Shown piece after piece: positions 12,916 to 59,444 of a stretch of 64,000 bases of DNA (position 1 is its first letter; every line of letters starts with the position of its first letter). The DNA comes from Bacilli bacterium (GTDB taxonomy: Bacteria; Bacillota_I; Bacilli_A; RFN20; CAG-826). The translations under genes and the position numbers were made by a program. The notes under the pieces are model-generated. The model searched no databases. It had not been told where the DNA came from and saw only the letters and a program-made list of their open reading frames with translations. The stretch spans positions 118,776-182,775 of the forward strand of contig JAFTDF010000004.1 in the NCBI GenBank assembly GCA_017454295.1, in the 5' to 3' direction.

Positions 12916-12933
12916 TGTTATCATAGTTGCGTC

Positions 12934-14542: not shown

Positions 14543-14543
14543 C

Positions 14544-16585: not shown

Positions 16586-16626
16586 TTTTTTCTTCGTTTA
16601 GAGTAGATTGCGTGTATTATTTCCCT

Positions 16627-25893: not shown

Positions 25894-25980
25894 GGCCCCC
25901 TGGTGGAATGGTAGACGCGATGGACTCAAAATCCATTATCTGATGAGGATGTGTCGGTTCGAGTCCGACGGGGGCCACCA
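25894..25980 (+). tRNA. tRNA-Leu (anticodon CAA), class II with a long variable arm, CCA encoded
   Basis: GGCCCCC acceptor arm paired with GGGGGCC-A-CCA, D-arm GGAATGGTAGAC, anticodon loop CTCAAAA, T-arm GTCGGTTCGAGTCCGAC. Confidence 0.85.
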
Positions 25981-29735: not shown

Positions 29736-29812
29736 TGGCGCGCCCGAGCCGACTCGAACGGCTGGCCTCAACCTTCGGAGGGTTGCACTCTATCCAACTG
29801 AGCTACGAGCGC
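29736..29812 (-). tRNA. tRNA-Arg (anticodon CCG), CCA encoded
   Basis: Minus-strand read GCGCTCGTAGCTCAGTTGGATAGAGTGCAACCCTCCGAAGGTTGAGGCCAGCCGTTCGAGTCGGCTCGGGCGCGCCA. Confidence 0.8.
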
Positions 29813-29819
29813 GTATGTA

Positions 29820-29906
29820 TGGTGCCCAAGGTGAGATTTGAACTCGCACTGCTGTTAACAACTCGCCCCTGAAACGAGCGCGTCTACCGTTCCGCCACTT
29901 GGGCAC
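29820..29906 (-). tRNA. tRNA-Leu (anticodon CAG), class II, CCA encoded
   Basis: Minus-strand read GTGCCCAAGTGGCGGAACGGTAGACGCGCTCGTTTCAGGGGCGAG...GTTCAAATCTCACCTTGGGCACCA. Anticodon loop TTCAGGG with U33 and G37. Confidence 0.75.
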
Positions 29907-33230: not shown

Positions 33231-33341
33231 AACGTAGTTATTATGCGCAATTGCGCGATAAAGGTAAAGCCAAACGACCGAAATCGAAGAATATGCGTCT
33301 TCGATGCGCAGGAAAAGGAAATCCTCTACAATAGGGCCGTT

Positions 33342-33836
33342 ATGAAAAAGACCATTTATCTTGCCGGTGGATGCTTCTGGGGCGTCCAAGCCTACTTCGA
33401 TCAATTAAAAGGGGTCCTCTCGACCCGCGTGGGATACGCTAACGGCGCCACCGCCTTCCCCAAATACGAGGAAGTCAAAACCGGGAAAACCGGCCATGCC
33501 GAAACCGTAAAGATCGATTACGAGGATTCCGAAATCACCCTCACCGAACTATTGGAACATTATCTGCGTTTCGTCGATCCCTATTCTTTGAATAAGCAAG
33601 GACATGACGAAGGCACCCAATACCGCACCGGGGTCTATTACACCGATGTCCTCGATGGCGTCGATGCGGAAGTTTATCTCAATGAGAAATGCGGGAAGGA
33701 ACACAAAATCGAAATCGAGAAGATGCTGAATTTCTTCCCTGCTGAAGCCTATCACCAAGACTATTTAAAGAAAAATCCAGGTGGATATTGCCACGTGGAT
33801 TTGTCCTTAGCCAAAGCAAGCGAGAAAAAGAACTAA
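33342..33836 (+). CDS. msrA: peptide-methionine (S)-S-oxide reductase
   Basis: GCFWG active-site motif; 164 aa. Confidence 0.85.
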   Translation: MKKTIYLAGGCFWGVQAYFDQLKGVLSTRVGYANGATAFPKYEEVKTGKTGHAETVKIDYEDSEITLTELLEHYLRFVDPYSLNKQGHDEGTQYRTGVYYTDVLDGVDAEVYLNEKCGKEHKIEIEKMLNFFPAEAYHQDYLKKNPGGYCHVDLSLAKASEKKN

Positions 33837-33892: not shown

Positions 33893-34522
33893 CTAGAAAA
33901 ACTCTTCTTCTAGACGTAGACAAAGATAGTGATAGATGGGTAAATGCAGTTCCTGAACCTTAAAGGTTTCGCTTTCGTCTACGGCGATGGTCATATCGGC
34001 GATTTGCTTGAGTTCGCCACCGCTTCTGCCGGTCAAACCTAAAACTTTTAAACCCAAGGCTTTGGCGCATTGGGCACCTAAAGAGACGTTGCGGGCATTC
34101 CCCGAAGTGGAGATGCCCAAAAACACATCGCCCGGCTTGCCAAGGACGTTGACTTGTTGGGCATATACGAGTTCCGCACCATGAGGGACGTCATTGGCGA
34201 AGGCGGTATTGAGCCCGGCATGATTATGCAAAGCGATGGCGGGAAAGCCTTCCTGAAGTTCATCGCATAATAGCTGGCCGTCTTTTTGTCGAAGCAAATT
34301 AGCCGCTTTCGATTGAGGCACGGTCCGTTTCTTTTTAAATCCCTTCATCAGTTCGCCGACGATATGATCGGCATCGGCGCAGCTGCCACCGTTACCGCAA
34401 ACCAAAAGCTTGCCGCCGTTTTGGTAGCACGCCTTCAAAACCGCATAAGCGGCTTCGATTTGGTCTTTGCTAGAAGCGAGGACCGGATAACGTTGTATGA
34501 GATCTTCGATGGTATATTGCAT
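33893..34522 (-). CDS. gmhA: SIS-domain phosphoheptose isomerase
   Basis: VCGNGGSCADADH motif and length match GmhA. Confidence 0.7.
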   Translation of the reverse strand: MQYTIEDLIQRYPVLASSKDQIEAAYAVLKACYQNGGKLLVCGNGGSCADADHIVGELMKGFKKKRTVPQSKAANLLRQKDGQLLCDELQEGFPAIALHNHAGLNTAFANDVPHGAELVYAQQVNVLGKPGDVFLGISTSGNARNVSLGAQCAKALGLKVLGLTGRSGGELKQIADMTIAVDESETFKVQELHLPIYHYLCLRLEEEFF

Positions 34523-36353: not shown

Positions 36354-37673
36354 TTATTTCCCTAGGAAATCGATGATTTGCTCGGCCATGTAATCCAACA
36401 TCTCGTGGGTCATACCGGGATAGACGCCGATCCAGAAGGAATTGTTCATGATTTCATCGGTGACCTTCAAATCACCGACGACGCGGTAACCTTCCCCGCT
36501 TTCCCGCATCTGATCGAAGCAAGGATGGCGGAGCAAGTTCCCGGCAAAGAGGTTGCGGGTTTGGACACCATGGGATTCGAGATAACCGGTCATGTCGTTG
36601 CGGGTATAGGGCGCTTTCACATAGATGAGGAAGCCAAACCAGGAAGGATCGGCATTCTTCGTCGGCTCGGGAAGGATGATCTTATCGGCAACGCATTCGA
36701 GTTTTTCACGGAGATATTTCCAGTTCTCTTTACGCTTCTCGATGAAACCAGGGAGCTTTTCCAACTGGGCCACACCAACCGCGGCTTGCATCTCGGTAAT
36801 CTTGAGGTTGTAGCCGAATTCGGAATAGACGTATTTATGGTCAAAACCATAAGGCAAAGTGCCAAATTGACCGGTAAAGCGATGGCCGCAGAAATTATCT
36901 TTGCCCGAGGGGCAGATGCAATCGCGCCCCCAATCACGGAAGGATTTGCAGATACGGTTCAATAACGGATTGTTGGTATAGACGGCACCACCTTCGCCCA
37001 TCGTCATATGGTGGGCGGGATAGAAGGAGGAGGTTCCGATGTCGCCAATGGTGCCGGTATATTTCCATTCACCATCGATGAAATACTTGGTGCCTAAGGC
37101 ATCGCAGTTATCCTCAATCAACCAAAGGTTGTGCTTTTTGCAGAAATCGCGGACCGCCAAAAGGTCAAAGGCGTTGCCTAAGGTATGGGCGATCATGACC
37201 GCCTTGGTCTTGGGGCTAAGGGCCGCTTCCAATTGGTCGACGTCGATTTCATAACTGGGGAGTTTCACGTCGACGAAAACGGGAACGGCACCGTATTGGA
37301 TCATCGGGGTGACGGTGGTCGGGAAGCCGCAGGCAACGGTAATGACTTCGTCGCCGCGTTTGATTTGCCGTTCTTTTAAAGAAGGGGAAGTCAGCGTCAT
37401 AAACGCCAAAAGGTTAGCGCTAGACCCGGAAGTCGTCGCCAAGCAGAAGCGGGCACCGAGGAACTTCGCGAAATTCTTCTCGAACATCTCCACATAGCGG
37501 CCGGCGGTCAACCAAAAATCCAATGAGCTATCAACCAAATTCACCATTTCCTTCTCGTCGTAAACACGAGAGGCGTAGTGAATATAATCGCCTTTCACAT
37601 AAGGCTTTTTGTGGGCTTGTTGCTCTTGGAAATACTCCTTAACCAATACAAGGATTTGCTGACGTTTGTCCAT
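36354..37673 (-). CDS. rfbH: CDP-4-keto-6-deoxy-D-glucose 3-dehydrase (E1; RfbH/DdhC/AscC family, PMP and 2Fe-2S dependent)
   Basis: DegT fold with His in place of the PLP lysine (FYPAHHMTMGEGG) and a C-x-C-x7-C cluster motif (DCICPSGKDNFC); 439 aa. Confidence 0.8.
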   Translation of the reverse strand: MDKRQQILVLVKEYFQEQQAHKKPYVKGDYIHYASRVYDEKEMVNLVDSSLDFWLTAGRYVEMFEKNFAKFLGARFCLATTSGSSANLLAFMTLTSPSLKERQIKRGDEVITVACGFPTTVTPMIQYGAVPVFVDVKLPSYEIDVDQLEAALSPKTKAVMIAHTLGNAFDLLAVRDFCKKHNLWLIEDNCDALGTKYFIDGEWKYTGTIGDIGTSSFYPAHHMTMGEGGAVYTNNPLLNRICKSFRDWGRDCICPSGKDNFCGHRFTGQFGTLPYGFDHKYVYSEFGYNLKITEMQAAVGVAQLEKLPGFIEKRKENWKYLREKLECVADKIILPEPTKNADPSWFGFLIYVKAPYTRNDMTGYLESHGVQTRNLFAGNLLRHPCFDQMRESGEGYRVVGDLKVTDEIMNNSFWIGVYPGMTHEMLDYMAEQIIDFLGK

Positions 37674-37754
37674 AGGGTTCTCCGTAAAGTTTCTTTAAGA
37701 AAGCGACCCCATTTTATACTAATCGCCAAGGGAAAACCACCATGCGTTATGCGT

Positions 37755-37777
37755 AAACAAAAAGGCGGATAACCGCC
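37755..37777 (-). terminator. intrinsic terminator after rfbG (GGCGG-ttat-CCGCC then TTTTTGTTT on the minus strand)
   Basis: Seen directly. It separates rfbF-rfbG from rfbH, which has its own TATAAAAT plus GGAG start region. Confidence 0.5.
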
Positions 37778-37784
37778 TTTGGTA

Positions 37785-38852
37785 TTAATTTTGGAAGAAT
37801 TCCCGGATTTCCTTGTCGGTTTCTTCGAGTAGGGCTTTCCGGTCTCCGGAGAGATAGACTTTCGTCCAATCGGCGACGAGCTTAAGGGCTTCGTCGATAT
37901 GGGTCCTCGGCTTCCAGCCAAAGACCCGTTTAATCTTCCCTGCGTCAAGTTTGAGGAAGTTGGCTTCGTGAGGGCCATTTGGATCCCCCACTTCCCAAGT
38001 GGCCTCGGGGCCATAAATCGCATCGAATTTTTGGATGAGATCACCTGTGGTGACGCAATCGCAATCGTCTGGTCCGACATTGTAATAGCCTGCGTGCGAG
38101 AAATCCTCATATTGGGCTTGGGCGATGGTCAGATAAACAAGCAACGGTTCCAGAACGTGCTCATAGGGGCGGGTGGAATTGGGATTACGGACAAATAGAG
38201 GTTTTCCCGCTTCGATGGCGCGGACGGCATCCGGAATGATACGGTCTAAAGCGAAATCCCCACCGCCGATGACGTTGCCGGCGCGGCAAGTAGAAACCGG
38301 AAGTTTAATCGGGTCGAAGAATGACTTCTTGTAAGAATGAGTCACGAGTTCCGAACAAGATTTGGAATTGGAGTAGGGATCGTACCCATCCAAAGGCTCG
38401 TCTTCGGTGAAGGCATGACCAGGGATATCGTTATTCAAATAGACCTTATCGGTGGTGACGTTGACCACGGATTTAACAAAGTTGGAGGTGCGCACCGCTT
38501 CCATCACATTCGCAGTGCCGATGACATTGGTTTCGTAGGTATATAGGGGTTCTTGATAAGACAAACGCACCAAAGGTTGAGCCGCCAAATGGAGGATGAT
38601 TTCCGGCTTATATTCATCCACGACCGCCTTAAAATGGGGATAATCGCGGATATCGCCGATGATGGAAATCATCTGGTCTTTTAGGCCAAGCAAGTCGAAT
38701 AAAGCGGGTTTGGTCGGGGGTTCCAAAGAATACCCCACCACTTTGGCACCGGCCAAAATCAAGATTCTCGATAACCAAGAACCTTTAAAGCCGGTATGAC
38801 CGGTGATGAGGACGGTTTTTCCTTTGTAAAAGGATAAGCTGAAATTAGTCAT
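37785..38852 (-). CDS. rfbG: CDP-glucose 4,6-dehydratase
   Basis: TGHTGFKGSWL Rossmann motif and YxxxK region. Start taken at MTNFSLSF (ATGACTAA overlap with the rfbF stop). The track M1 start 21 nt upstream is possible. Confidence 0.8.
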   Translation of the reverse strand: MTNFSLSFYKGKTVLITGHTGFKGSWLSRILILAGAKVVGYSLEPPTKPALFDLLGLKDQMISIIGDIRDYPHFKAVVDEYKPEIILHLAAQPLVRLSYQEPLYTYETNVIGTANVMEAVRTSNFVKSVVNVTTDKVYLNNDIPGHAFTEDEPLDGYDPYSNSKSCSELVTHSYKKSFFDPIKLPVSTCRAGNVIGGGDFALDRIIPDAVRAIEAGKPLFVRNPNSTRPYEHVLEPLLVYLTIAQAQYEDFSHAGYYNVGPDDCDCVTTGDLIQKFDAIYGPEATWEVGDPNGPHEANFLKLDAGKIKRVFGWKPRTHIDEALKLVADWTKVYLSGDRKALLEETDKEIREFFQN

Positions 38853-39621
38853 CCCAGGTCTTCCACGGGGCATCGCCCTCTTCCCACAGCTGCTCTAAGT
38901 AATCCTTATCGCGCTTGGTATCCATGCACTGCCAGAATCCTTTGTGATGGTAGGCAGCAGCCTTCTTGTCGGCGACGAGTTTGCCAATGGGGCCTTTTTC
39001 GAAGACCGTTTTATCCCCGGCGATGTATTTGATGACTTCCGGTTCGCAAACCATGAAACCGCCGTTGATCAAGGAACCATCTTGAATGGACTTTTCGCGG
39101 AACGCTTCAAGGGTTCCGTCTTTTCCGACTTCGATAATACCTTTGGTTTGGGACAAAGCGATGGAGGTGATGGTAATGGCCTTGCCGGTTTTCTTATGGA
39201 AGGCGAGAAGCTTATTTAAATCCACATCAGAAACGGCATCACCATAAGTCAGCATAAACGGCTCATTGCCGATATATTCCGCTGCCCGCTTGATACGACC
39301 GCCGGTCATGGTATTGAGCCCGGTGTCGAGAACGGTGACACGCCAAGGCTCGGCATGCTTTGCATGGACGATGACTTCATTATTCACCATATCGAAGGTG
39401 ACGTCGGAATGATGAAGGAAATAATTATTGAAATATTCCTTAATGACATATTGCTTATAGCCACCAAGAATCACGAAGTCATTGAAACCGTATTCGGAAT
39501 AATGCTTCATGATGTGCCAAATGATCGGCATATTGCCGATTTCAATCATGGGTTTGGGTTTGAACTGGGATTCTTCGCTGATGCGGGTCCCGTAACCACC
39601 GGCAAGGATTAATACTTTCAC
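38845..39621 (-). CDS. rfbF: glucose-1-phosphate cytidylyltransferase
   Basis: ILAGGYGTRI motif and the cytidylyltransferase-specific insertion WRVTVLDTGLNTMTGGRIKR; 258 aa. Confidence 0.85.
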   Translation of the reverse strand: MKVLILAGGYGTRISEESQFKPKPMIEIGNMPIIWHIMKHYSEYGFNDFVILGGYKQYVIKEYFNNYFLHHSDVTFDMVNNEVIVHAKHAEPWRVTVLDTGLNTMTGGRIKRAAEYIGNEPFMLTYGDAVSDVDLNKLLAFHKKTGKAITITSIALSQTKGIIEVGKDGTLEAFREKSIQDGSLINGGFMVCEPEVIKYIAGDKTVFEKGPIGKLVADKKAAAYHHKGFWQCMDTKRDKDYLEQLWEEGDAPWKTWDD

Positions 39622-39740
39622 AAAGACACCTCTCGGATATTCGTGGACAAATTATATCAAATTGTCTCATTTAGATAAAAGCGAATCGACGCAAACCAAT
39701 CCCATTGGATTCGAATAATATTCGAAATGTAAAAGAGCTT

Positions 39741-41003
39741 CTATTCTTGGCTTTCCGGGTTCTCATTGGAAACGCGGCAGTTTTTGTTTTCCAAGACAAC
39801 AATCAAAACGAGACACAATGCGACTTCCACGCCTTCTGCAATCACCAAAGCATAAGACATCCCATCCATATAGAGCCCCTGGCACATCGGATAGGATATC
39901 GCCGCGCAGATGGCCAACCCCAGCGCAGCGGCAATCATCGTTTCCTTCCGCTTTCCCATGGCTCCCAAAATCTGCGTGACCACCGTCACCATCGCCGTGA
40001 AGGAGGTGGCGATGATGGCGCCTTTGAACACATAGGCATAGGGCATGATGATGTCACCGTAAACAAGTTTCAAAGCCCAGTCGCCGAGCCAAACGACGCC
40101 CAAGAACACCGCAGAGCAGAATGCAATCGCGACGAACACCACAAGCCCTGTGAATTTGAGAAAACCAGCCTTCTCTTTTTGCTCGTGGAGTTTGGCAAAA
40201 CGCGGCACCAGAGGCAGCATGACGGCGGACGCAACCGTCTGAATCAAAACGGCGATGTTCGCAATGGACGAGTAATAGCCAAGCTGTTCCGTGTCATAGA
40301 TTTTTTCAAAGAAAATACGGGGAAGCGAAGGCAATACGTTAGAAAGCAGCAAGAGAACGAAAAGCGGGAAGCAAGAAATCAAAACGGATTTGAGGGTTTT
40401 CCACGAATAAGCACGCCACTGAATGCGGAAACCAACCGCCTTTTTCGCCACGAATATATCCACCAAAGCCATGGCAATCCCGACCAAGGAAAGACCGATC
40501 AACGACCAGATCAACGATTTCGTCAAAACGGCAATCGCGGCGAAGATCCCCACGGAAAAAAGGCCTTTAATCGTCAACGTGATGCCACCCAAATATAGTT
40601 TGGAGTGCTTTTGCAAAACGCCTTGGTAGATATCGGAGACCAATTCGGTCCCTTTATAGACGTAATAAATCATGATGGCTGCGATGATCGACCAGGAGTA
40701 TTGCAAAGCAAGGCAATAGCCAAAGCAAATGAGAAAGCTGATTCCGGTGAGGATGAAACGAGAAATCACGTAATCGCTATCCGAATGTTCGTTGTTGACG
40801 TCGGCGGCATACCTCAATCGGAGATAATAGTTCCCAAACGACATCGCGATATTCGAAGCGACCAAGGCAAGGGTCAGCACACCCTGTGCCTCGACACTGA
40901 TGAATTTGGTGGTGAAAACCGTAATCAGCCAAAGCCCAAACAAATAGGCGAACTGCCCGATGAGGTTCCAAATCAACTCTTTACCTAAAGCACCCTTTTT
41001 CAT
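39741..41003 (-). CDS. polysaccharide flippase of the MOP/Wzx family
   Basis: 420 aa with 12 predicted TM helices, in glycan-locus context. Confidence 0.65.
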   Translation of the reverse strand: MKKGALGKELIWNLIGQFAYLFGLWLITVFTTKFISVEAQGVLTLALVASNIAMSFGNYYLRLRYAADVNNEHSDSDYVISRFILTGISFLICFGYCLALQYSWSIIAAIMIYYVYKGTELVSDIYQGVLQKHSKLYLGGITLTIKGLFSVGIFAAIAVLTKSLIWSLIGLSLVGIAMALVDIFVAKKAVGFRIQWRAYSWKTLKSVLISCFPLFVLLLLSNVLPSLPRIFFEKIYDTEQLGYYSSIANIAVLIQTVASAVMLPLVPRFAKLHEQKEKAGFLKFTGLVVFVAIAFCSAVFLGVVWLGDWALKLVYGDIIMPYAYVFKGAIIATSFTAMVTVVTQILGAMGKRKETMIAAALGLAICAAISYPMCQGLYMDGMSYALVIAEGVEVALCLVLIVVLENKNCRVSNENPESQE

Positions 41004-41021
41004 GGTTGTTTCTTTCTGGGA

Positions 41022-41933
41022 CTACTTCAAAGACGCGGCGACTTTCCGGATGCCTTCTTCGAAAGAAACGGTTGGGGCCCATCCGGTATCTTTCTTCAGT
41101 TCATCGACATGGGCACACATCTTCATGATTTGGTTGGGGGGATATTCAAGGGCGCCGAATTCGATCGGCAAATTAATGCCGAGCCATTGCGGAATCGGTT
41201 CGACGAAGCTACGAATCGTGCCGGTCACGCCACTGCCAAGTTCATAGGTCTTTCCATCAAGGCCCTTATCCGCGACGGCGGCGATAGCCCGCACCGCATC
41301 TTCGGTGTAGAGGAAATCCCAAATCTGCTCGCATTTAGTGAGTTTGGGAGACTCGCCTTTGAGCAAGGTGCTAACGATATATTGGGTCAACGATCCAGCA
41401 CCGGAAAAGGGACCATAGACCGAGAAAATACGAATCCAATTAAAGCGGATGCCGATCTGGCTGGCTTTGAGTTTTCCAAGCTGTCCCGCGGCGAGTTTGG
41501 CCATGCCGTATCCGGTTACTGGCATTAGCGGGCGATCCTCGGATTCGACGCCCTTGCCGTATTCAGCTTGGGATCCGGCGCCGACGAAGGCCTTGCAGCC
41601 CATACGTTTGGCCAAATCCAGGGCATCCATGACCCCTTTGATGTTTTGCACTTGAAGGGTGGTGTCGTCACGATTGGGGCCGAAGGTTCCGGCCCAGGAT
41701 AGATGAATGAAGGCATCGCAATCGGTGGGAATCTGCATCAGAGATGAATAATCCGTTAGGAGGCAATCGATGAAGGTAATCCGCTCGGGGTGGGAATAGG
41801 CTTTCGGGTTGGTGATTCCCGGCATATTCAGCAGCACACAATCGACGCCTTCCGAAGTGAACAGATTGGTTAAAGCCACGCCAATGGTTCCGGTGGCTCC
41901 CGAGATGACGACTTTTTTCAAATGATATGCCAT
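41022..41933 (-). CDS. NAD(P)-dependent extended-SDR epimerase/reductase (CDP-paratose/abequose-synthase-like or YerF-like)
   Basis: GATGTIG Rossmann motif and a YGMAK catalytic Y-x3-K; 303 aa. Confidence 0.7.
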   Translation of the reverse strand: MAYHLKKVVISGATGTIGVALTNLFTSEGVDCVLLNMPGITNPKAYSHPERITFIDCLLTDYSSLMQIPTDCDAFIHLSWAGTFGPNRDDTTLQVQNIKGVMDALDLAKRMGCKAFVGAGSQAEYGKGVESEDRPLMPVTGYGMAKLAAGQLGKLKASQIGIRFNWIRIFSVYGPFSGAGSLTQYIVSTLLKGESPKLTKCEQIWDFLYTEDAVRAIAAVADKGLDGKTYELGSGVTGTIRSFVEPIPQWLGINLPIEFGALEYPPNQIMKMCAHVDELKKDTGWAPTVSFEEGIRKVAASLK

Positions 41934-42109
41934 AAATCAGCCTCGTTTTGTTGTTTCAAAGGTCCTCCCTATTCTATACCGATTGGAGTTCTCTCCCAAC
42001 TGGCTTTTTCGCAATAACAGGTTTCCTCCTGTTTTCAAATATAGAAAACAAAGGGCTTTTGTAGTAATGTATCCTTGCGATTTGTAAACCACCCACAAAG
42101 GAGATTCCT

Positions 42110-42880
42110 ATGCAAGTAGTCATTTTGGCAGGAGGGGAGGGCATCCACCTTCCGGGCAGCGGCATCACCACCGCCAAGGGTATGGTCAACGTTGGCAATC
42201 AGCCCATTTTGTGCCATATCATGGACCAATTCTCCGCTTATGGCCTCAACGATTTCGTCATTTGCGCCGGCAAACACCAAATGGAAATCAAGCAGTTTTT
42301 CCTCGATTACTATGTCCGAAATAACGATATCCTTGTCGATTTGGGAAGCAATACCGCCACCATTGAAACCAACCGGAAGAAACAATGGCGCGTACGCGTT
42401 GTCGATACTGGCGTCAACGTTGCCACCGGCGGACGCTTGAAGCGGGTGGCTTCCTATTTAAACCCGAAAGAGCCTTGCTTGGTTGCTTATGCTGATACCT
42501 TGGCCGATGTCGATATCAAATCTTTGATTGAACAGCATATTTCTAGCGGAAAAAAGGCAACCATAACCACTTATAACGCCTCCCAGAAATTCGGCGTCGT
42601 CGAAACCAAGCCCGATGGAACCGTCACTCAGTTCCGGAGCCGTAACGCCCAAAGCCTTTCGCTCATTAATATCGGGTTCATGGTTTTGGATCCTTCCGTG
42701 CTTGATTTGATCAACGGAGACGATATCGTCTTGGAAAAATACCCGTTGGAAGAGCTCGCGCGTCAAGGCCAGCTCGGCGCTTATGTCCATGAAGGTTTCT
42801 ACAGCAAACTTGACACATTAAACGACAAAGTCATGCTCGATAACCTCTTTGCAACCGGGCAAATTAAATTCGGTGCCTGA
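42110..42880 (+). CDS. divergent paralogue of glucose-1-phosphate cytidylyltransferase lacking the canonical G-x-G-T-R loop
   Basis: Shares the RfbF-specific insertion (WRVRVVDTGVNVATGGRLKR), but the N-terminus reads ILAGGEGIHLPGSGITTAKG. AAAGGAGA ribosome-binding site. Confidence 0.65.
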   Translation: MQVVILAGGEGIHLPGSGITTAKGMVNVGNQPILCHIMDQFSAYGLNDFVICAGKHQMEIKQFFLDYYVRNNDILVDLGSNTATIETNRKKQWRVRVVDTGVNVATGGRLKRVASYLNPKEPCLVAYADTLADVDIKSLIEQHISSGKKATITTYNASQKFGVVETKPDGTVTQFRSRNAQSLSLINIGFMVLDPSVLDLINGDDIVLEKYPLEELARQGQLGAYVHEGFYSKLDTLNDKVMLDNLFATGQIKFGA

Positions 42881-42882
42881 TT

Positions 42883-44649
42883 ATGACCAAAGGTTTCCTT
42901 TACGACGGACATTTGTTTTACGCGGATCTCTCGTTGGTTTCTTTGGAATCTCACTATCGCCTTTTCACCAAAGACAGTTACGAGGAAATCGTTGAACCGG
43001 AAGATATTTTCCACGCCAAGTCTTTTCGTTTAATCCTCGAGGACTATATCGAAAGTCTCATTGATCAAGACGCTGAACTATATGATTTCTTTGCCCGAGG
43101 GCTCTCAGACCCCATCCGTGGTTTGACGTCATTGACTTCCCTCTTCTCCAACGTAACCAGAACCAACGTCATCAAAGACTATCCCCAATATGAATCCGTT
43201 CTTTCCGACGGCGGCTTGAACTTCATGCGGTTCGTCGAAGGCTTTTTGCGTTTTTATCTATCTCGGGAACGGTTTGGATTCCTCAAAGCCGGACCGGGGA
43301 TGGATTTCGACCGCTTGAAATTGAAACTCCGCACGTTCCGGGCCACCTTGCTTCATCTCTTTCACAAAGTGGAGACCAACGTGCTAGAAAAACCGATTTC
43401 CGTCGAAAGCGAGCTCAATGTCGGCTTCTCCTGTGGACTCCTCGTCGACGATAGCCCCATTCGTTTCGAAGGCAACTATGCTTATCTCAACGATGTTCTC
43501 TTCGTGAAAGACGCCTATCTCGCCTTGCCTTATACGACTTCCACCAAAAAGAATAAACGCATTGGCGTCTATCAGCCCTCCCCCACTCCTTTGGCGAAGG
43601 AGCTGGATATCGATCCTTCCGAATTCCTATGCATCCCCATTTACTGTGGGTCGAGCCTCGTCTACTTTTATTTCAATGTCCATAACCTGAATAACGTCAT
43701 CGGCATTCTCAATCTTTTCACGAAGGTTCCTTATACCGAGCTGGAAGGAAAGAAGCCAGACATCATCGTCATCTTTGGTGGAAATAAAGGCGAATCCACT
43801 GGCACCTACTACTACGATGGGGATGGGGATTTCCTCGTCGGCTATGTTTCCGAAACCGAAGACGCCGATTATTTCGGCTACGTGAAAAAACTCATCCTCA
43901 CTTTGCACAACACGAGGATGATCAACCAAGGGTATCTGCCCATCCACGGCTCGATGATGGATATCATCATGAAGTCCGGCAAAGAAGTCAAAATCGTCAT
44001 CATGGGCGACTCTGGGGCTGGCAAATCCGAATCCATCGAAGCTTTCCGCAAGTTGGCAAAAGAATATCTAAAAGACATCAAAATCATCTTTGACGATATG
44101 GGCACCCTCTTCCTGACCAAGGACGGCGTCCGCGCTAGCGGAACCGAATCCGGCGCTTTTGTCCGTATCGACGACCTCGATATCGGATATGCGTTCTCCC
44201 ATATCAACGATTCCATTATTTATAATGCCGATCGGACCAATGCCCGCATCGTCTACCACGCCACCCCGTATGACGAAGTGGTCACCAAATGGCCCGTCGA
44301 TATCTTCCTTTATGCCAACAACTACGAAAAGAGCGAGGAAGGAATCCGCTTCCCCGAATCTTGGGAAGAAGTGGCCACCATTTGCGAAGAAGGCAAACGC
44401 ATGGCCAAAGGCACCACGGGAGAAGTCGGAATCGTCTCCTCTTATTTCGCCAACCCTTTCGGCCCCGTTCAAAACAAAGAAAAGACCCAAGAGTTGGTTA
44501 AGGAATACTTTGCCACAATGGCCAAGGACGGGACATCGTTAGGCATCATCTATACGCAACTCGGGTTGGAGAATATGAGCAAAATCGGCCCGGAGTTAGC
44601 CGCGAAAAAATTATTTGAATGGATCAATCAAAGCGAGGAAAAGCAATGA
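42883..44649 (+). CDS. 588-aa protein: novel N-terminal domain of about 330 aa fused to an HprK/P-like (PEPCK-fold) P-loop kinase domain
   Basis: The segment LPIHGSMMDIIMKSGKEVKIVIMGDSGAGKSESIEAFRKL...IIFDDMGTLF matches the HprK pattern IHG..v..G.gvLi.GdSGvGKSE..L...GH.LvaDD. Starts 2 nt after the rfbF-paralogue stop; the next gene start overlaps its stop (ATGA). Confidence 0.6.
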   Translation: MTKGFLYDGHLFYADLSLVSLESHYRLFTKDSYEEIVEPEDIFHAKSFRLILEDYIESLIDQDAELYDFFARGLSDPIRGLTSLTSLFSNVTRTNVIKDYPQYESVLSDGGLNFMRFVEGFLRFYLSRERFGFLKAGPGMDFDRLKLKLRTFRATLLHLFHKVETNVLEKPISVESELNVGFSCGLLVDDSPIRFEGNYAYLNDVLFVKDAYLALPYTTSTKKNKRIGVYQPSPTPLAKELDIDPSEFLCIPIYCGSSLVYFYFNVHNLNNVIGILNLFTKVPYTELEGKKPDIIVIFGGNKGESTGTYYYDGDGDFLVGYVSETEDADYFGYVKKLILTLHNTRMINQGYLPIHGSMMDIIMKSGKEVKIVIMGDSGAGKSESIEAFRKLAKEYLKDIKIIFDDMGTLFLTKDGVRASGTESGAFVRIDDLDIGYAFSHINDSIIYNADRTNARIVYHATPYDEVVTKWPVDIFLYANNYEKSEEGIRFPESWEEVATICEEGKRMAKGTTGEVGIVSSYFANPFGPVQNKEKTQELVKEYFATMAKDGTSLGIIYTQLGLENMSKIGPELAAKKLFEWINQSEEKQ

Positions 44650-46466
44650 AAGTCAAATTCTCGACCTATTTAGCAAAATGGTTGGTGGATCATGGCATCA
44701 CCACCAACTTCACCGTTCCTGGCGGCGGCGCTATGCATTTAAACAACTCCTTTGCGGCTGAGCCGGGTTTGAAGAACGTCTTCGTCCAGCATGAGCAAGC
44801 TGCTTCCATCGCCGCCGAAGGGTATTACCGCGAATGCAATCGTCTGCCTTTGGTTTGCGTGACCACCGGCCCGGGTGGGACCAACGCCATCACCGGCGTC
44901 CTTGGCGCATGGCTGGATTCTATTCCGATGTTAGTCATTTCCGGTCAGGTCAAATGGAGCACCACCGTCGCTTCCACCGGTTACCCTATGCGGATTTTCG
45001 GCGACCAAGAATACGATATCACGAAGCCCATGGCCCATATGACCAAATACGCCATGATGCTCACCGTTCCCGAAATGGCGCTTTACCATGTCGAAAAAGC
45101 CATCTATTTGGCCACCCATGGTCGCCCTGGACCAGTGTGGCTGGATATGCCTCACAACATCCAAGCGGCGATGATTGATCCCGACGAACTCATCCACTTC
45201 AATCCCGAAGAGCTCGCCAACACCAACCCCGGACCCGTTTCCGATCAAGTCATCGATTTACTCATCGAAAAGATCAAAGCCGCCAAGCGCCCCGTGCTTT
45301 ATAGCGGCATCGAAGTCCGCACCAGCGGTGATTACAAAGCCTTCCGTCAGCTTGTGGAACGCCTCAATATTCCCGTCGTCACCAGTTTTGATGGTGTCGA
45401 TATGTTAGAAGATTGCCATCCTTTGCACGCTGGCCGCGCTGGCGATGTCGCCACGCGCTATGGCAACTGGGCCGTCCAAAATAGCGACTTCCTGCTCGTG
45501 TTAGGTTCTCGTCTAGGCATCCGTCAGGTATCCTATGCCACCAAAACCTGGGCTCGAGAAGCCTTTGTGGCGATGGTCTATCCGGATTCTTTGGAGCTCA
45601 CCAAACCCAATGTCCATGTGGAGTTGCCGATCCGTGCCACCTATCAGGATTTCCTGGCCAAAATGCTCGCAAAAGTCCAGCAGCCGATGGAAAAACGCCA
45701 AGAATGGTTGGATATCATCGCCAAATGGAAAGAAGATTACCCCTTGGTCAGCGATCAGCAAAAAGCCCAAAAAGAACCGGCGAATATCTACGCCTTCTTT
45801 GAAGCGTTCTCCAAACTCTTGCCGGAAAATACCACCACCGTTGCATCAAACGGGTCTTGTGAAGCCGTCGGCGGAGCCGCCTACCAAATGAAAAAAGGCG
45901 GACGCTTCATCATCAACTCGGGTGCCGCTTCCATGGGCTATGGTTTGCCCGCGGCCATCGGCGCCGCGTTTGCTAACGGCAAAGAAGTCATCTGCCTCGA
46001 AGGCGATGGTTCCATCCAAATGAATTTGCAGGAACTCCAAACCATGGTGTTCCATCAGTTGCCGATCAAAATCGTCCTCATCAATAACGAAGGCTACCAT
46101 TCCATGCGGCAAACCCATGCCAATCTCTTTAAGGACTATCCCGCGAATGGTATCGGGCCGGAAAGCCAAGACCTGAGCTTCCCCAATATGGAAAAAATCG
46201 CTGGTGCCTATGGCATCCCCTACTTCAAAGTCACCAAAAACGAAGAAACCGAGTCCGTCAGCAAAGCCTTCCTTGCCCACAAGGGCTATGCCTTAATGGA
46301 AGTGTTCGTGGACAAAGACCAATTCTTCTTCCCCAAGCCTTCCGCGATGCGGCTCCCCGATGGAACGCTCATCTCGCCGCCGCTTGAAGACATGGCGCCC
46401 TTCCTCCCGCGGGAAGAACTCGAAAAAATCATGATCATCCCCCTCGTTGATAACCAAAAGAAATAA
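44646..46466 (+). CDS. thiamine-diphosphate-dependent acetolactate-synthase-like enzyme (YerE-like branched-sugar-forming candidate)
   Basis: 606 aa. N-terminal Pyr domain, central TPP_enzyme_M domain and a C-terminal ThDP-binding GDGS-x24-NN motif (LEGDGSIQMNLQELQT...LINNEGY). GAGGAAAAG ribosome-binding site. Confidence 0.75.
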   Translation: MKVKFSTYLAKWLVDHGITTNFTVPGGGAMHLNNSFAAEPGLKNVFVQHEQAASIAAEGYYRECNRLPLVCVTTGPGGTNAITGVLGAWLDSIPMLVISGQVKWSTTVASTGYPMRIFGDQEYDITKPMAHMTKYAMMLTVPEMALYHVEKAIYLATHGRPGPVWLDMPHNIQAAMIDPDELIHFNPEELANTNPGPVSDQVIDLLIEKIKAAKRPVLYSGIEVRTSGDYKAFRQLVERLNIPVVTSFDGVDMLEDCHPLHAGRAGDVATRYGNWAVQNSDFLLVLGSRLGIRQVSYATKTWAREAFVAMVYPDSLELTKPNVHVELPIRATYQDFLAKMLAKVQQPMEKRQEWLDIIAKWKEDYPLVSDQQKAQKEPANIYAFFEAFSKLLPENTTTVASNGSCEAVGGAAYQMKKGGRFIINSGAASMGYGLPAAIGAAFANGKEVICLEGDGSIQMNLQELQTMVFHQLPIKIVLINNEGYHSMRQTHANLFKDYPANGIGPESQDLSFPNMEKIAGAYGIPYFKVTKNEETESVSKAFLAHKGYALMEVFVDKDQFFFPKPSAMRLPDGTLISPPLEDMAPFLPREELEKIMIIPLVDNQKK

Positions 46467-46476
46467 GGAGAATCCC

Positions 46477-47484
46477 ATGAACATCACCGTACTTGATTGC
46501 ACCCTTCGCGACGGTTGCTATATCTGCAACTCCAACTTTGGCGCGGACACCATTCGCGGCATCATTCAAAAACTCGAACAAGCCGGCACCGAAATCATCG
46601 AAATCGGCTGGCTGAAAGACAAAGCCCATACCCCGGGGACCGCCTTCTATCATTTACCCGAAGACGCTAAGCAATACATGGGCAAGAAAGACCCCCACTT
46701 CTCTTATGTCGTGATGATCGACTGGGACCGTTATAACCTCGACAATTTACCCGTCAATGACGGCACCGCGATCGATGCGATCCGTGTGGTCTTCCCCCAC
46801 GGCAAACATCATGAAGGCATCGAAGTCGGCAAAGCCGTGAAAGCCAAAGGCTATGACCTTTATCTGCAAGCCGCCAACACGCTTGCGTATAGCAACGAAG
46901 ACCTCATCGATCTTTGTGCTTGCATCAACGAAGCCAAACCCATCGCCATTTCCATCGTCGATACCTTTGGAGCCATGTATCCCGAAGACCTGAAGCGTAT
47001 CGCCGAAGTGATGGATGCCCATTTGGATCCGGAAATCAAAATCGGATTCCATTCCCATAACAACCAGCAATTGTCTTTTGCCCTTTCCATCCAATTTGCG
47101 GAAATGTTCCAAAACTCCAAGCGGGACATCATGATCGATGCTTCCTTGACCGGCATGGGCCGCGGCGCGGGCAACACCACCACCGAATTGCTCATCTCTT
47201 ACCTCAACCGCAAGCAAGGCAAGAACTACGACATGAATGCGATTCTTGCCGCGATCGACCAATATATGGTCCCTCTGCAAAAACAATACGAATGGGGTTA
47301 TTCCATTCCTTACTTCATCTCCGGCACCCACTGCGCCCACGTCAATAACTTGGCTTACCTCCTTGAGAAGCATCAAGCCAGCAACGAAGACATCTGGGAC
47401 ACGTTTGAAAACGAGAAACCCGAAGATCGTCTCAAATACGATTACGACGTGCTCGAAGCCTGCTATCAATCTCGGAAAAAATAA
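46477..47484 (+). CDS. HMGL-like (DRE-TIM metallolyase) aldolase/synthase
   Basis: N-terminal LDCTLRDGCY, as in 4-hydroxy-2-oxovalerate aldolase / isopropylmalate-synthase-like enzymes. HSHNN metal site. AAGGAG ribosome-binding site. Confidence 0.7.
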   Translation: MNITVLDCTLRDGCYICNSNFGADTIRGIIQKLEQAGTEIIEIGWLKDKAHTPGTAFYHLPEDAKQYMGKKDPHFSYVVMIDWDRYNLDNLPVNDGTAIDAIRVVFPHGKHHEGIEVGKAVKAKGYDLYLQAANTLAYSNEDLIDLCACINEAKPIAISIVDTFGAMYPEDLKRIAEVMDAHLDPEIKIGFHSHNNQQLSFALSIQFAEMFQNSKRDIMIDASLTGMGRGAGNTTTELLISYLNRKQGKNYDMNAILAAIDQYMVPLQKQYEWGYSIPYFISGTHCAHVNNLAYLLEKHQASNEDIWDTFENEKPEDRLKYDYDVLEACYQSRKK

Positions 47485-48120
47485 ATGAAAGTCTTTTACG
47501 ATTTGGATGGGACGTTGCTCGACTCTAAGGGTGAAATCGTCTACACGATTGAAAAAGCTTTGGAGGAGAATGGCTTTTCTCTTGCCGATGCGATCCATCC
47601 GATTCGTATCGGTCCGCCCCTGAAGCAGATTCTTTTGAATTCCTATCCAGAAGGTTTCTTTTCGGAAGAGGACCTTGCCAAAATCAACCGTTCCATGCGG
47701 CGGATTTACGATAGTTCCGATTACCATATGACCCCGCCCTACCCAGGAGTGGTAGAACTTTTGGCTACCACCCCCTACGAGAGTTATGTGCTGACGAATA
47801 AGCCGCACTCCGCCACCGATCGGATAGTGGAAATCAAGGGGTGGTCCAAGTATTTCAAAGGGATCTTTGTTCCCGACTCCTCCAAAGGAGAGAGCAAGGA
47901 AACGATTCTGCGGGACCTCAAAAAACAATTCCCAAACGAGACGATCGTAATGGTTGGCGACACCATCAGTGACACGGGCTCCGCCCAAAAAGCTGGCGTG
48001 AAAGCCGTTGGCGTCCTTTGGGGCGAAGGAACGAAAGAAGAGCTGCTTCCTACGGAACCGGACTATTGTGTTTCGTCCTTAGACGACTTAAAACGAGCTC
48101 TGATCGAATTGGCTAGATAA
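47485..48120 (+). CDS. HAD-superfamily phosphatase (phosphoglycolate-phosphatase-like subfamily IA)
   Basis: YDLDGTLLDS motif I, T/S motif II and GDTISD motif III. The ATG abuts the aldolase stop. Confidence 0.75.
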   Translation: MKVFYDLDGTLLDSKGEIVYTIEKALEENGFSLADAIHPIRIGPPLKQILLNSYPEGFFSEEDLAKINRSMRRIYDSSDYHMTPPYPGVVELLATTPYESYVLTNKPHSATDRIVEIKGWSKYFKGIFVPDSSKGESKETILRDLKKQFPNETIVMVGDTISDTGSAQKAGVKAVGVLWGEGTKEELLPTEPDYCVSSLDDLKRALIELAR

Positions 48121-48141: not shown

Positions 48142-49965
48142 TCACCCGCCAAAGGAAACGATATAGAGTCCTAAATCGCGAATATCTGCGCCCGTGCCTT
48201 CCTTGGAAGGGTTATAGGTAAAATCAGGCAACAGCTGAATTGTATTCATTTGGCCTTTTTTGATAGGCAAATCATAATCGAAACCGCCTTCGATCGAATA
48301 ATGGGTCAGGACAATCTCTCCGTTAACGATGGCGGTCACGCCATTGGCCGGACGATTGGGAAAACGGACATCTTCAATTTGAACATTCAAGGTTTCTCGG
48401 TCTCCATAAACAAGGGTCTCAAAAGAAGCGAGGGTCCATTTGGTCAAAATGTTTTTCCTACTGGCATTTTGAACATAAGTAACCGCCCCTCCTCGAACCA
48501 TGTATAAGGCGATACTTGGGTTTCCGGATGCATATTGTGAGATTTGATCTAAGTCAACGAGGTGCCACTTCTCCAAATCCCATTGCGGAATGAGCCCACC
48601 CAAAGAATTTTGGCTTTGGCGATCGGCGGCCACCAATAGTTCCGTCGCGCCCAACGCCTTGTAATGGTCCAAAATGGAATGCTGGAAATAAAGAGCCTGA
48701 TCGGCGCCGTCGTCGATGTAATAATGGACCTTATTATTGATGGTGTAAACGCCGGTTCCAATGACACCAAGAGCCACCAGCAAAGATAAACCAAACGAAA
48801 TATAGGGCCGCGGTTTTTGGTAGATGGGGCCAGAGGCGTCGGTGCCCTTCTTTTTTATCTCCAAATACGAGCAAAGATTGGCAATCGAGAATGCGCAAAG
48901 CGCAAACAAGAACATTTGACTCGTAAACATCCATCGCGGCTCGACACGGCCGGTGGAAACCGACCCACCGGCAGCAGTGAAACCGTAGAACACCCCGATG
49001 GCAAGGAAGATAAAGGAGTTTGCGAACCGCTTCTTTTTTAGATCCAAAACAAAGAGAACCAATCCCATCAAGACGATGGCCAAAAGCAGAATTCCCGTGG
49101 CCGCGAAAACAAAGCGATGCCAATCATCCAGCATGGCATTGGTAACGCCGGAAAGATACCAGACATCATCGTAGAGAGTGAATGTATTGACGAGCAGTTT
49201 AAAGAAGTTTCGGAAAATCGAAGCGATATCCCAGACAATGGACGCACCCGTAGCGGCCATTAAGGTGCCACGGGAAATCCAAAGCCGATCCACCAAGAAA
49301 ACGGCAACAATGCCCGCGGAAATCCCGGCGAATAGCAATTTCCGTTTCCAACCCGCAAAACCAATGAGAGCGGCAATGACAGGGACGGCAAACAAAAGGA
49401 TATAACGTTCGTGGGACCAACAAGCAAGCAACGTAAAAACGGCGCTCAAGACCAGCCAAACCCCATGGCCCCGATTCCGAATGAAACGGATCATAAAGAA
49501 TAATGCTAGCGCGGCCATACCCAAGGCCAAGGATTCCATGATGCCGAAATACCCGGCGTAATAGTACCAATTCAGTCGCGAGAATAACGCGGCGGCAGAG
49601 AAGATGGCGGCTAAAAGGCAGGAACCGCTCGCCTCTTTAAAAAGAATGAACAACGCTACGATGGTAAGGGCAAAGAACAACGATGCATAGACAAGCAATG
49701 GAGTTGTGGCATGGCCGAACATCGTAAACCCGAGCCCCATGAAAAATGCGGTAACTGGCCGGTGATCGAAAAAGAAATATTCAAAAAAGTTATATTTGGT
49801 AAATAGGACATATTCGTTCCCATCGTCGATGATGAGATAGGAGGTTGGGAAAAAATGATGGGAAAGCGTCCAGATCGTCGGCCAAAGCACAGCAATGGCG
49901 GCAACAAAGCCAATGCCATACCAGAACCACCGGTTACGTACGATCTTCAAAAGGCCATCACGCAT
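48142..49965 (-). CDS. polytopic membrane protein with a C-terminal extracytoplasmic domain (GT-C-like glycosyltransferase/oligosaccharyltransferase candidate)
   Basis: About 11 TM helices, then a soluble domain of about 230 aa. The ATG at M12 has GGGAGA 10 nt upstream. The TTG track start was rejected. Confidence 0.55.
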   Translation of the reverse strand: MRDGLLKIVRNRWFWYGIGFVAAIAVLWPTIWTLSHHFFPTSYLIIDDGNEYVLFTKYNFFEYFFFDHRPVTAFFMGLGFTMFGHATTPLLVYASLFFALTIVALFILFKEASGSCLLAAIFSAAALFSRLNWYYYAGYFGIMESLALGMAALALFFMIRFIRNRGHGVWLVLSAVFTLLACWSHERYILLFAVPVIAALIGFAGWKRKLLFAGISAGIVAVFLVDRLWISRGTLMAATGASIVWDIASIFRNFFKLLVNTFTLYDDVWYLSGVTNAMLDDWHRFVFAATGILLLAIVLMGLVLFVLDLKKKRFANSFIFLAIGVFYGFTAAGGSVSTGRVEPRWMFTSQMFLFALCAFSIANLCSYLEIKKKGTDASGPIYQKPRPYISFGLSLLVALGVIGTGVYTINNKVHYYIDDGADQALYFQHSILDHYKALGATELLVAADRQSQNSLGGLIPQWDLEKWHLVDLDQISQYASGNPSIALYMVRGGAVTYVQNASRKNILTKWTLASFETLVYGDRETLNVQIEDVRFPNRPANGVTAIVNGEIVLTHYSIEGGFDYDLPIKKGQMNTIQLLPDFTYNPSKEGTGADIRDLGLYIVSFGG

Positions 49966-53899: not shown

Positions 53900-54057
53900 A
53901 AGAATTCCGGTGAATATTTATATTCAATAACTCCGGATAGACTATGGCACAAAACAGCATCAATGCCAAGACAAACCTGAGCACAAGATGCCAAGGAGGA
54001 GACCCAATATGGTTTTCATCGTCCGCAACTGCGCTTTTTTGATAAACTATCGGCGAA

Positions 54058-56084: not shown

Positions 56085-56091
56085 GATAAAC

Positions 56092-59442: not shown

Positions 59443-59444
59443 GA

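Follow-up and report, generated by a model that had tools for sequence, protein, structure and literature searches.

Two divergent operons in an uncultured Bacilli genome predicted to make a CDP-activated 3,6-dideoxyhexose with a branched side chain

A putative branched-sugar locus with two operons

A 64,000-nucleotide stretch of the genome of an uncultured Bacilli bacterium of gut or rumen (GCA_017454295.1, contig JAFTDF010000004.1, positions 118,776 to 182,775; hereafter the window) carries two divergently transcribed operons, which probably act jointly to make a CDP-activated 3,6-dideoxyhexose with a 4-C side chain. One of their genes encodes a thiamine diphosphate (ThDP)-dependent carboligase resembling YerE and JanthE. 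Four kinds of genes, namely those for the ThDP enzyme, an aldolase, a reductase and the synthesis of CDP-4-keto-3,6-dideoxyglucose, are found together in positions 36354-48120, and the cluster matches the published scheme for acyl-branched sugars. The main features, in window positions, are as follows.

36354-37673, minus strand: RfbH/DdhC/AscC-type E1, CDP-4-keto-6-deoxyglucose 3-dehydrase (pyridoxamine phosphate and 2Fe-2S); NF011936, 708 bits against a cut-off of 423
37785-38873, minus strand: RfbG, CDP-glucose 4,6-dehydratase; TIGR02622, 396 bits against a cut-off of 278
38845-39621, minus strand: RfbF, glucose-1-phosphate cytidylyltransferase; TIGR02623, 362 bits against a cut-off of 300
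41022-41933, minus strand: extended short-chain dehydrogenase/reductase (SDR), called SDR303, proposed YerF/ErwF-like branch-ketone reductase; Pfam Epimerase
41934-42109, no strand: divergent intergenic region, 176 bp, with an AAGGAG ribosome-binding site ahead of 42110
42110-42880, plus strand: NTP2, remodelled RfbF paralogue; TIGR02623, 249 bits against a cut-off of 300
42883-44649, plus strand: P-loop protein with a phosphoenolpyruvate carboxykinase (PEPCK) fold, 588 aa; no Pfam match; AlphaFold model with a mean predicted local distance difference test score of 87.8
44646-46466, plus strand: YerE/JanthE-like ThDP-dependent carboligase, 606 aa; PF02776, PF00205 and PF02775, all above their cut-offs
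46477-47484, plus strand: DRE-TIM (HMGL-like) class II aldolase, 335 aa, proposed donor maker; PF00682
47485-48120, plus strand: HAD-IA phosphatase, phosphoglycolate-phosphatase-like; PF13419; NF009695, 75 bits against a cut-off of 225

The minus-strand operon is ordered SDR303, a 420-aa membrane protein, RfbF, RfbG, RfbH, the phosphoglycerate mutase GpmA, an HddA-like GHMP kinase and a GmhA-like SIS isomerase. The plus-strand operon (42110-48120) encodes NTP2, the 588-aa PEPCK-fold protein, the ThDP enzyme, the HMGL-like aldolase and the HAD phosphatase, and its genes are tightly packed. NTP2 and the 588-aa gene are 2 nt apart, the ThDP start codon (ATG, 44646) overlaps the stop codon of the 588-aa gene as ATGA, the 10-nt gap between the ThDP gene and the aldolase ATG contains an AAGGAG ribosome-binding site, and the HAD ATG directly abuts the aldolase stop codon (0 nt). 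In a promoter and terminator scan of the 176-bp divergent region, one weak sigma-70-like site was obtained on the minus strand, and it was not above chance.

An initial annotation of this DNA had described the ThDP gene as translationally coupled within the sugar operon. The length of 606 aa stands and the ATGA overlap agrees with the coupling, but the gene lies outside the rfbFGH operon, in the divergent plus-strand operon. The interval of that annotation ended at 46466 and so omitted the aldolase and the HAD phosphatase genes (46477-47484 and 47485-48120), which bear most on the identity of the product. It also passed over the second RfbF-like gene and the PEPCK-fold gene of the same operon, as well as the E3 reductase that was not found.

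Identity of the ThDP enzyme

The ThDP enzyme consists of three TPP domains (PYR, central and PP). In a single-sequence search of solved structures its closest relative was JanthE (8rph, 407 bits), followed by acetohydroxyacid synthase (AHAS) of E. coli and plants (226 bits), PpYerE (5ahk, 208 bits) and catabolic AlsS (96 bits), and the model of sulfoacetaldehyde acetyltransferase (Xsc) gave 173 bits. With a profile built from 31 family members, the scores were 566 bits for JanthE, 328 for PpYerE and 315 for AHAS. The JanthE alignment ran end to end, including a common C-terminal tail 'DGTLVSPPLEDL-P', whereas the alignments with AHAS and PpYerE stopped at about positions 560-565. The catalytic E50 ('VQHEQAA'), G453-D454-G455 and N480-N481 were invariant in the 31 family members.

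The clade placement was made by comparing scores with solved structures. These scores, together with the RfbF and RfbG genes beside the homologues, support the prediction that the enzyme is a YerE-like sugar-branching carboligase rather than IlvB, AlsS or Xsc. The initial annotation had proposed such an enzyme and named clustering with AlsS or Xsc as what would speak against it; at 96 and 173 bits, both are clearly excluded. JanthE, a YerE-like enzyme of Janthinobacterium, couples C3-C6 2-oxo acids, including 4-hydroxy-2-oxovalerate, to ketones (PMC12188165, PMC12247030), and pyruvate is among the donors that it takes (PMC12188165).

If no sugar were branched, the ThDP enzyme could be an acetolactate synthase or a small-acid decarboxylase, and the PEPCK-like protein, the aldolase and the phosphatase would be its partners in the metabolism of C3/C4 acids. 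Its top NCBIfam match is indeed the biosynthetic acetolactate synthase large subunit, and proteins of the PEPCK-fold, 2,3-bisphosphoglycerate-dependent phosphoglycerate mutase and phosphoglycolate-phosphatase-like kinds all act on small phospho-acids. However, all acetolactate synthase models of NCBIfam stayed far under their cut-offs (e.g., 333 against 538 bits for AHAS), ilvN and ilvC are not nearby, and the family is found within glycan loci beside RfbF and RfbG in 11 of 14 cases. The JanthE score is nearly twice that of AHAS, and the C-terminal tail is common to JanthE and the ThDP enzyme. A role confined to small acids is therefore considered highly improbable.

Genes for the CDP-3,6-dideoxyhexose core

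RfbF, RfbG and RfbH each scored above their NCBIfam equivalog cut-offs, and the NF011936 match spans residues 3-437 of RfbH. In the RfbH translation 'SSFYPAHHMTMGEGG', a His occupies the site of the pyridoxal phosphate lysine of aminotransferases; this His-for-Lys site reads 'YPAHHMTMGEGG', and the C-x-C-x7-C motif (C-I-C-x7-C) reads 'DCICPSGKDNFC', with a further Cys within 'EDNCDALG'. All genes named in the initial annotation were found at the coordinates that it gives, and both hallmarks of E1 that it describes were recovered. RfbF, RfbG, E1 and the ThDP enzyme are members of the families named above, and their genes are linked.

Gene context of the ThDP family in related loci

In total, 14 distinct ThDP loci were gathered and compared with the window proteins by tblastn; a genome scan returned nine loci, all from Firmicutes or Eggerthellaceae. 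The ThDP homologues, at 47-93% identity, adjoin RfbF and usually RfbG as well. The occurrence of the window proteins in the 14 loci, with identity to the window protein, was as follows.

True RfbF orthologue: 11 of 14 loci, 55-69% identity
RfbG: 9 of 14 loci, 45-67% identity
SDR303 homologue: 10 of 14 loci, 33-43% identity (96% in L016)
HMGL-like aldolase: 11 of 14 loci, 30-88% identity
HAD phosphatase, alongside the aldolase: 6 of 14 loci, 24-85% identity
PgfS/ArnC-like family 2 glycosyltransferase (GT2): 10 of 14 loci, 44-96% identity
E1: 3 of 14 loci (L005, L013 and L017), 69-78% identity

In two loci the order of genes ties E1 to the ThDP gene. In L005 the gene order is RfbF-RfbH-ThDP, and in L017 a single operon is ordered E1-SDR-NTP2-PEPCK-like-aldolase-HAD-ThDP. 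The co-occurrence in relatives and the arrangements in L005 and L017 argue strongly for a CDP-4-keto-deoxyhexose as the acceptor of the ThDP enzyme, and in loci with E1 the acceptor is likely the 3,6-dideoxy form.

The same loci bear on the question of whether the window makes one product or two. With two products, E1 and the SDR would give an unbranched, paratose- or abequose-like 3,6-dideoxyhexose, while the plus-strand operon would branch CDP-4-keto-6-deoxyglucose or a nucleotide sugar made by NTP2. The occurrence of RfbF and RfbG without E1 in most family loci, the two cytidylyltransferase-like genes in the window and the SDR that follows E1 in L013 and L017, which is just 28% identical to SDR303, are consistent with this. 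The L005 and L017 arrangements stand against it, as does the finding that, besides RfbG, the window has a single candidate reductase, whose homologues adjoin ThDP genes even without E1; with this reductase taken by the role of ThDP partner, no enzyme is left for the C4 reduction of a plain dideoxyhexose. NTP2, with neither the signature Arg nor the conserved E-K pair, is also doubtful as a standard sugar-1-phosphate cytidylyltransferase. Two separate products are thus regarded as unlikely.

The family is widespread. The best 120 clusters at 90% identity were all at least 59% identical to the window ThDP enzyme, and the few with a source name came from Clostridia, Lachnospiraceae, Butyrivibrio sp. 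MB2005 and a Bacteroides metagenome-assembled genome (MAG). The closest genome locus, at 83% identity, was from an uncultured Bacilli MAG from reindeer. YerE-like clusters have been described in Pectobacterium, Mycobacterium, Rhodopseudomonas, Spirochaeta, Pseudomonas and Janthinobacterium, and more than 200 are predicted (PMC12247030), so the pathway is not unusual outside Yersinia, contrary to what had initially been supposed.

Reductase, aldolase, phosphatase and the length of the branch

The best solved relative of SDR303 was 2pk3, a nucleotide-sugar 4-ketoreductase (61 bits). A homologue lies directly downstream of the ThDP gene in 6 of the 14 loci (L002, L006, L007, L009, L011 and L012) and within 2 kb of it in two further loci, and loci without E1 are included among the carriers. 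Because homologues accompany ThDP genes in related loci, the comparison indicates that SDR303 may be the branch reductase, in line with the YerF-like role first suggested for it.

The aldolase contains the DRE-TIM motifs 'LDCTLRDG' and 'HSHNN'. Against the DmpG/BphI models it scored 88-99 bits, with cut-offs of 229-286 (at best 99 against 229), its match to BphI (4lrs; E 3e-15) covers residues 159-284 only, and its best solved match was 3dxi, a putative aldolase that is an uncharacterised Bacteroides protein. The HAD phosphatase is a frequent partner of the aldolase, which suggests that either the aldehyde substrate or the aldol product may be phosphorylated, as in the KdsA/KdsC logic of the synthesis of Kdo (3-deoxy-D-manno-oct-2-ulosonic acid).

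Erwiniose, caryophyllose and gastriose share one biosynthetic scheme, in which a hydroxylated 2-oxo acid formed by an aldolase is joined to CDP-4-keto-3,6-dideoxyglucose by a YerE-like enzyme and a reductase completes the side chain (PMC9306805). In Pectobacterium, the aldolase ErwI is BphI-like and belongs to the HMGL family, and ErwE refuses pyruvate and takes 4-hydroxy-2-oxo acids (PMC9306805). Given the aldolase and HAD phosphatase genes downstream of the ThDP gene, a hydroxylated branch longer than the C2 branch of yersiniose appears more likely when the window is read under this scheme (PMC9306805).

A yersiniose-like product had first been expected. In the yersiniose case, the ThDP enzyme would use pyruvate and add a C2 acetyl unit to CDP-4-keto-3,6-dideoxyglucose, SDR303 would be YerF, and the aldolase and phosphatase would serve some other purpose. 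Pyruvate is accepted by JanthE among other donors, and the aldolase was not seen in the fetched stretch of 3 of the 14 loci (L006, L007 and L009), so that some family members may use a common 2-oxo acid. In the window, however, the aldolase begins 10 nt past the ThDP stop codon and the HAD gene follows without a gap, 11 of the 14 loci have the aldolase as well as the ThDP gene, and ErwE, which comes from the sole characterised cluster with an HMGL-family aldolase, refuses pyruvate (PMC9306805). With the DRE-TIM aldolase and the HAD phosphatase directly after the ThDP gene, a C2, pyruvate-derived yersiniose is not the best prediction, and we judge it quite unlikely.

In L001 (Butyrivibrio, 11830-14900) and L005 (Ruminococcaceae, 11824-14878), three genes separate the ThDP gene from the aldolase, encoding a classical SDR, an AroB-related 'sugar phosphate phospholyase (cyclizing)' and an FGGY-like kinase. 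The AroB-related gene matched TIGR04425 with 327 bits in L005 and Pfam DHQ_synthase in L001, and the aldolase of both loci has an additional C-terminal region of about 200 aa. This arrangement looks like a different route for the supply of the branch donor.

NTP2 and the 588-aa protein

Of 93 positions conserved at 90% or more among 111 RfbF-type sequences, NTP2 has lost 26. Its GGxGTR signature reads GGEGIH, all seven members having His for the Arg, and all or nearly all of the seven are without the conserved E-K pair and 24 further conserved positions. About seven close relatives of NTP2 were found, every one of them beside a PEPCK-like gene. Given the loss of the signature and the E-K pair, the residues of NTP2 set it apart from standard glucose-1-phosphate cytidylyltransferases, and it could either act on a new substrate or serve as a non-catalytic, regulatory partner. 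As a separate candidate role, NTP2 was considered for the missing HddC step of a heptose pathway whose other steps would fall to the SIS isomerase, the GHMP kinase and a phosphatase; this is unlikely because NTP2 and the PEPCK-like gene occur in L013 and L017 without GHMP or SIS genes within 10 kb, and the HddC score was 37 bits.

For the 588-aa protein, a sequence search of the PDB returned nothing, and the top Foldseek matches of its model were ATP- and GTP-dependent PEPCKs (E ~1e-15). In hhalign, the protein aligned with E. coli Pck at a probability of 80% (E 1.3e-5), pairing Y330-x4-K335-K336 with Y207-K212-K213, H355 with H232, GDSGAGKS with GLSGTGKT, and N453-x-R455 with N331-x-R333. The model thus matches the two-domain PEPCK fold, and the YxGxxKK motif, the metal-binding His, GxSGxGK(S/T) and NxR line up with catalytic residues of E. 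coli Pck. In contrast, the identity is only 11-18%, the NCBIfam PEPCK model gave 24 against 369 bits, the N-terminal substrate Arg R65 is unaligned, and the placement of D268/D269 is ambiguous in hhalign. The P-loop reads GDSGAGKSE and resembles that of HPr kinase.

The family of the 588-aa protein comprises 1806 matches, most of them without a precomputed Pfam domain, and its members are unnamed, hypothetical or called 'phosphoenolpyruvate carboxykinase' (Clostridium, Fusobacterium, Cetobacterium). Paralogues at about 50% identity directly follow a class I/II aminotransferase in loci other than glycan loci (L014, 8001-9737; L015, 8001-9752). Because of this arrangement, a pairing of aspartate, oxaloacetate and phosphoenolpyruvate (PEP) is suggested, which would fit a genuine oxaloacetate/PEP enzyme. 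In five loci the PEPCK-like gene is located between the cytidylyltransferase paralogue and the ThDP gene, and its product may supply the aldolase with oxaloacetate, which would act as a decarboxylating enolate donor.

Proposed pathway and the points that weigh against it

In the pathway proposed for the two operons, RfbF would convert glucose-1-phosphate and CTP to CDP-glucose, from which RfbG would form CDP-4-keto-6-deoxyglucose. E1 (RfbH), together with an electron donor, would then strip the 3-hydroxyl to give CDP-4-keto-3,6-dideoxyglucose. In parallel, the DRE-TIM aldolase would couple a pyruvate-type C3 unit to an aldehyde, probably phosphorylated, and the HAD phosphatase would take off the phosphate, giving a hydroxylated 2-oxo acid as the putative donor. 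In this presumed order of steps, the ThDP enzyme would decarboxylate this acid and transfer the acyl anion onto the C4 ketone of the sugar, and SDR303 would reduce the new ketone of the side chain. The PgfS-like GT2 would probably load the sugar on polyprenyl phosphate, for use at the cell surface by glycosyltransferases of the GT-C fold (GT87 and PMT_2-like).

Several findings weigh against this pathway or parts of it. PpYerE is no better a match for the ThDP enzyme than AHAS (208 against 226 bits with the single sequence, 328 against 315 bits with the profile), and the predicted place of the enzyme among sugar-branching enzymes draws on JanthE as the sole characterised reference, together with gene context. 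Most family loci are without E1, therefore the usual acceptor of the family is probably a 6-deoxy 4-keto sugar and not a 3,6-dideoxy one. No E3 reductase (AscD/DdhD/RfbI; Fer2 plus FNR-like) was found by Pfam in the 53 large open reading frames of the window that were scanned, which are not all of its reading frames, nor among the genes listed or scanned in the E1-bearing loci L005, L013 and L017. The E3 gene may lie elsewhere, or another electron donor may take the place of E3, and an E1 without a nearby E3 partner raises the question of how E1 gets reduced in these anaerobes. By its scores, the aldolase appears not to be an orthologue of ErwI/BphI or of MMAR_2331, being of the same superfamily and a different subfamily, and the cluster has no ErwJ-like supplier of the aldehyde (acetaldehyde dehydrogenase). 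The scheme also leaves NTP2, the PEPCK-like protein, GpmA, the GHMP kinase and the SIS isomerase without a part.

A more far-reaching version would give two of these proteins a function. NTP2, the PEPCK-fold protein, the aldolase and the HAD phosphatase would form an undescribed branch-donor route, in which oxaloacetate or a PEP-type C3 unit, supplied by the PEPCK-family enzyme, would add to a sugar phosphate in an aldol reaction that is essentially irreversible, and the phosphatase would free a polyhydroxylated 3-deoxy-2-ulosonic acid in the style of the Kdo pathway. The ThDP enzyme would graft this acid onto CDP-4-keto-3,6-dideoxyglucose, and NTP2 would carry out a non-canonical nucleotidyl transfer. 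The product would be a new branched sugar of about C11-C13, delivered through a polyprenyl-phosphate carrier and GT-C enzymes. We regard this version as speculative and rather unlikely.

Phosphonate biosynthesis (PepM, Ppd and a cytidylyltransferase) was considered separately and rejected, as there is no PEP mutase and the ThDP enzyme is a three-domain, AHAS-like protein and not Ppd.

Putative delivery genes, operon tail and other genes of the window

The remaining genes of the minus-strand operon and those next to the plus-strand operon are listed below.

39741-41003, minus strand: multi-pass membrane protein, 420 aa, probable Wzx/MOP-type flippase; strongly hydrophobic throughout; no Pfam or NCBIfam match
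48142-52950, minus strand: three membrane proteins, namely a PMT_2-like GT-C (Pfam PMT_2, weak and below cut-off), a GT87 and a 595-aa protein
52937-53899, minus strand: GT2 polyprenyl-phosphate glycosyltransferase (PgfS/ArnC-like); PF00535; best NCBIfam match PgfS, 164 bits
35579-36289, minus strand: GpmA, 2,3-bisphosphoglycerate-dependent phosphoglycerate mutase; equivalog passed, 327.5 against 305 bits
34522-35532, minus strand: HddA-like GHMP kinase; HddA, 151 bits against a cut-off of 600
33893-34522, minus strand: GmhA-like SIS isomerase; GmhA, 141 bits against a cut-off of 209

Homologues of the 420-aa protein, which is probably a Wzx/MOP-type flippase, were found in L004 (30%) and L017 (43%). 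The arrangement of 48142-52950 is kept in L016, and GT87 homologues are present in L006, L009, L012, L013 and L017. We infer that the PMT_2-like GT-C, the GT87 and the 595-aa protein are extracytoplasmic transferases using a lipid-linked sugar, so that the sugar would be moved to a polyprenyl-phosphate carrier and then transferred outside the membrane by the GT-C enzymes. GT87 is best known from mycobacterial mannosyltransferases, which makes its presence in a Bacilli MAG notable. Taken together, 27824-29641 and 48142-59448 are densely packed with genes for lipid-carrier-dependent glycosylation and encode a Wzy_C protein, a PMT_2-like GT-C, two GT87, the PgfS-like GT2 and two AT3 acyltransferases, in addition to three membrane or other proteins without a family match (51163-52950, 55140-56084 and 57255-58247).

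GpmA, the GHMP kinase and the SIS isomerase follow rfbH in the window only, and tblastn found none of them in L013 or L017. This operon tail, whose membership in the pathway is uncertain, may be used for a separate heptose residue, but an HddC-type transferase is not evident.

Beyond the tail, the open reading frames of a GH3 glycosidase (30846-33404, minus strand) and of MsrA (33108-33836, plus strand) share about 300 bp; as the MsrA domain begins only at residue 81, translation of MsrA probably starts further downstream. MsrA adjoins rfb genes in L013 too, indicating local synteny. A second small glycan block (11845-15410), with two GT8, a 261-aa protein and a PlsC-type acyltransferase, lies upstream of an ABC/FtsX (MacB-like) pair (16612-19904), and a YhcG/DUF1016 PDDEXK nuclease gene (61178-62254) is located at the edge of the glycan region. 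An Rfam scan of the window returned three tRNAs only, with a riboswitch upstream of neither operon; the tRNA genes are Leu-CAA, Arg-CCG and Leu-CAG, at 25894-25980 and 29736-29904.

Comparison with known systems

Acyl-branched deoxy sugars are rare and immunologically prominent in bacterial surface glycans, and ThDP branching enzymes are sought as catalysts for chiral tertiary alcohols. Gut and rumen Firmicutes (Clostridia and Bacilli), from which, to our knowledge, no branched sugar has been described, carry abundant members of the JanthE/YerE-like branching family. The cluster that recurs around this family includes a polyprenyl-phosphate GT2 and a DRE-TIM aldolase of a distinct kind, often together with a HAD phosphatase, and these organisms are predicted to carry a longer-branched 3,6-dideoxy or 6-deoxy sugar. 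Features that set the window apart from the published scheme are the other aldolase subfamily with its phosphatase, the PEPCK-fold protein, the remodelled cytidylyltransferase, the E3 not being found, the probable lipid-carrier delivery and the Bacilli host. Three uncharacterised protein types are thereby flagged, namely the aldolase subfamily, the PEPCK-fold family and the remodelled cytidylyltransferase paralogue.

Among characterised enzymes, JanthE of Janthinobacterium sp. HH01 (8rph/8rpi/8rpj) resembles the window enzyme over its full length, C-terminal tail included, whereas its ThDP motif is an unusual CDG and that of the window enzyme is the canonical GDG.

The yersiniose A system of Yersinia pseudotuberculosis (DdhA-D, YerE and YerF) has in common with the window RfbF, RfbG and E1, a ThDP enzyme of the same superfamily and an SDR for the branch ketone. 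Unlike the predicted window pathway, it uses pyruvate directly, without an aldolase, and it has DdhD (E3).

The erwiniose cluster of Pectobacterium atrosepticum encodes the ThDP enzyme ErwE, the reductase ErwF, the BphI-like aldolase ErwI, the acetaldehyde dehydrogenase ErwJ and the ddh genes (PMC9306805). The window resembles it in the CDP-4-keto-3,6-dideoxyglucose genes, a YerE-like carboligase (likened to ErwE by gene kind), a pyruvate aldolase of the HMGL family and an NAD(P)H reductase. It differs in that its aldolase is distant from BphI/DmpG and that neither an ErwJ-like supplier nor E3 was found. Beyond the erwiniose cluster, it contains the HAD phosphatase, the PEPCK-fold protein and the remodelled RfbF paralogue, and its host is an uncultured Bacilli and not a proteobacterium.

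For caryophyllose and gastriose, in Mycobacterium marinum and M. gastri, the genes are MMAR_2331 (aldolase), MMAR_2332 (ThDP enzyme) and MMAR_2333 (glycosyltransferase), and MygE, MygI and MygF. There, as in the scheme proposed for the window, a ThDP enzyme forms the branch on a 3,6-dideoxy-4-keto sugar from a polyhydroxylated 2-oxo acid that an aldolase has made; in the mycobacteria the branches are C6-C7. The mycobacterial aldolase belongs to the HpcH/citrate-lyase family, whereas that of the window is DRE-TIM. For the mycobacterial clusters, neither a phosphatase, a PEPCK-like protein or a second cytidylyltransferase nor the delivery by a polyprenyl-phosphate GT2 and GT-C enzymes that is predicted for the window has been described.

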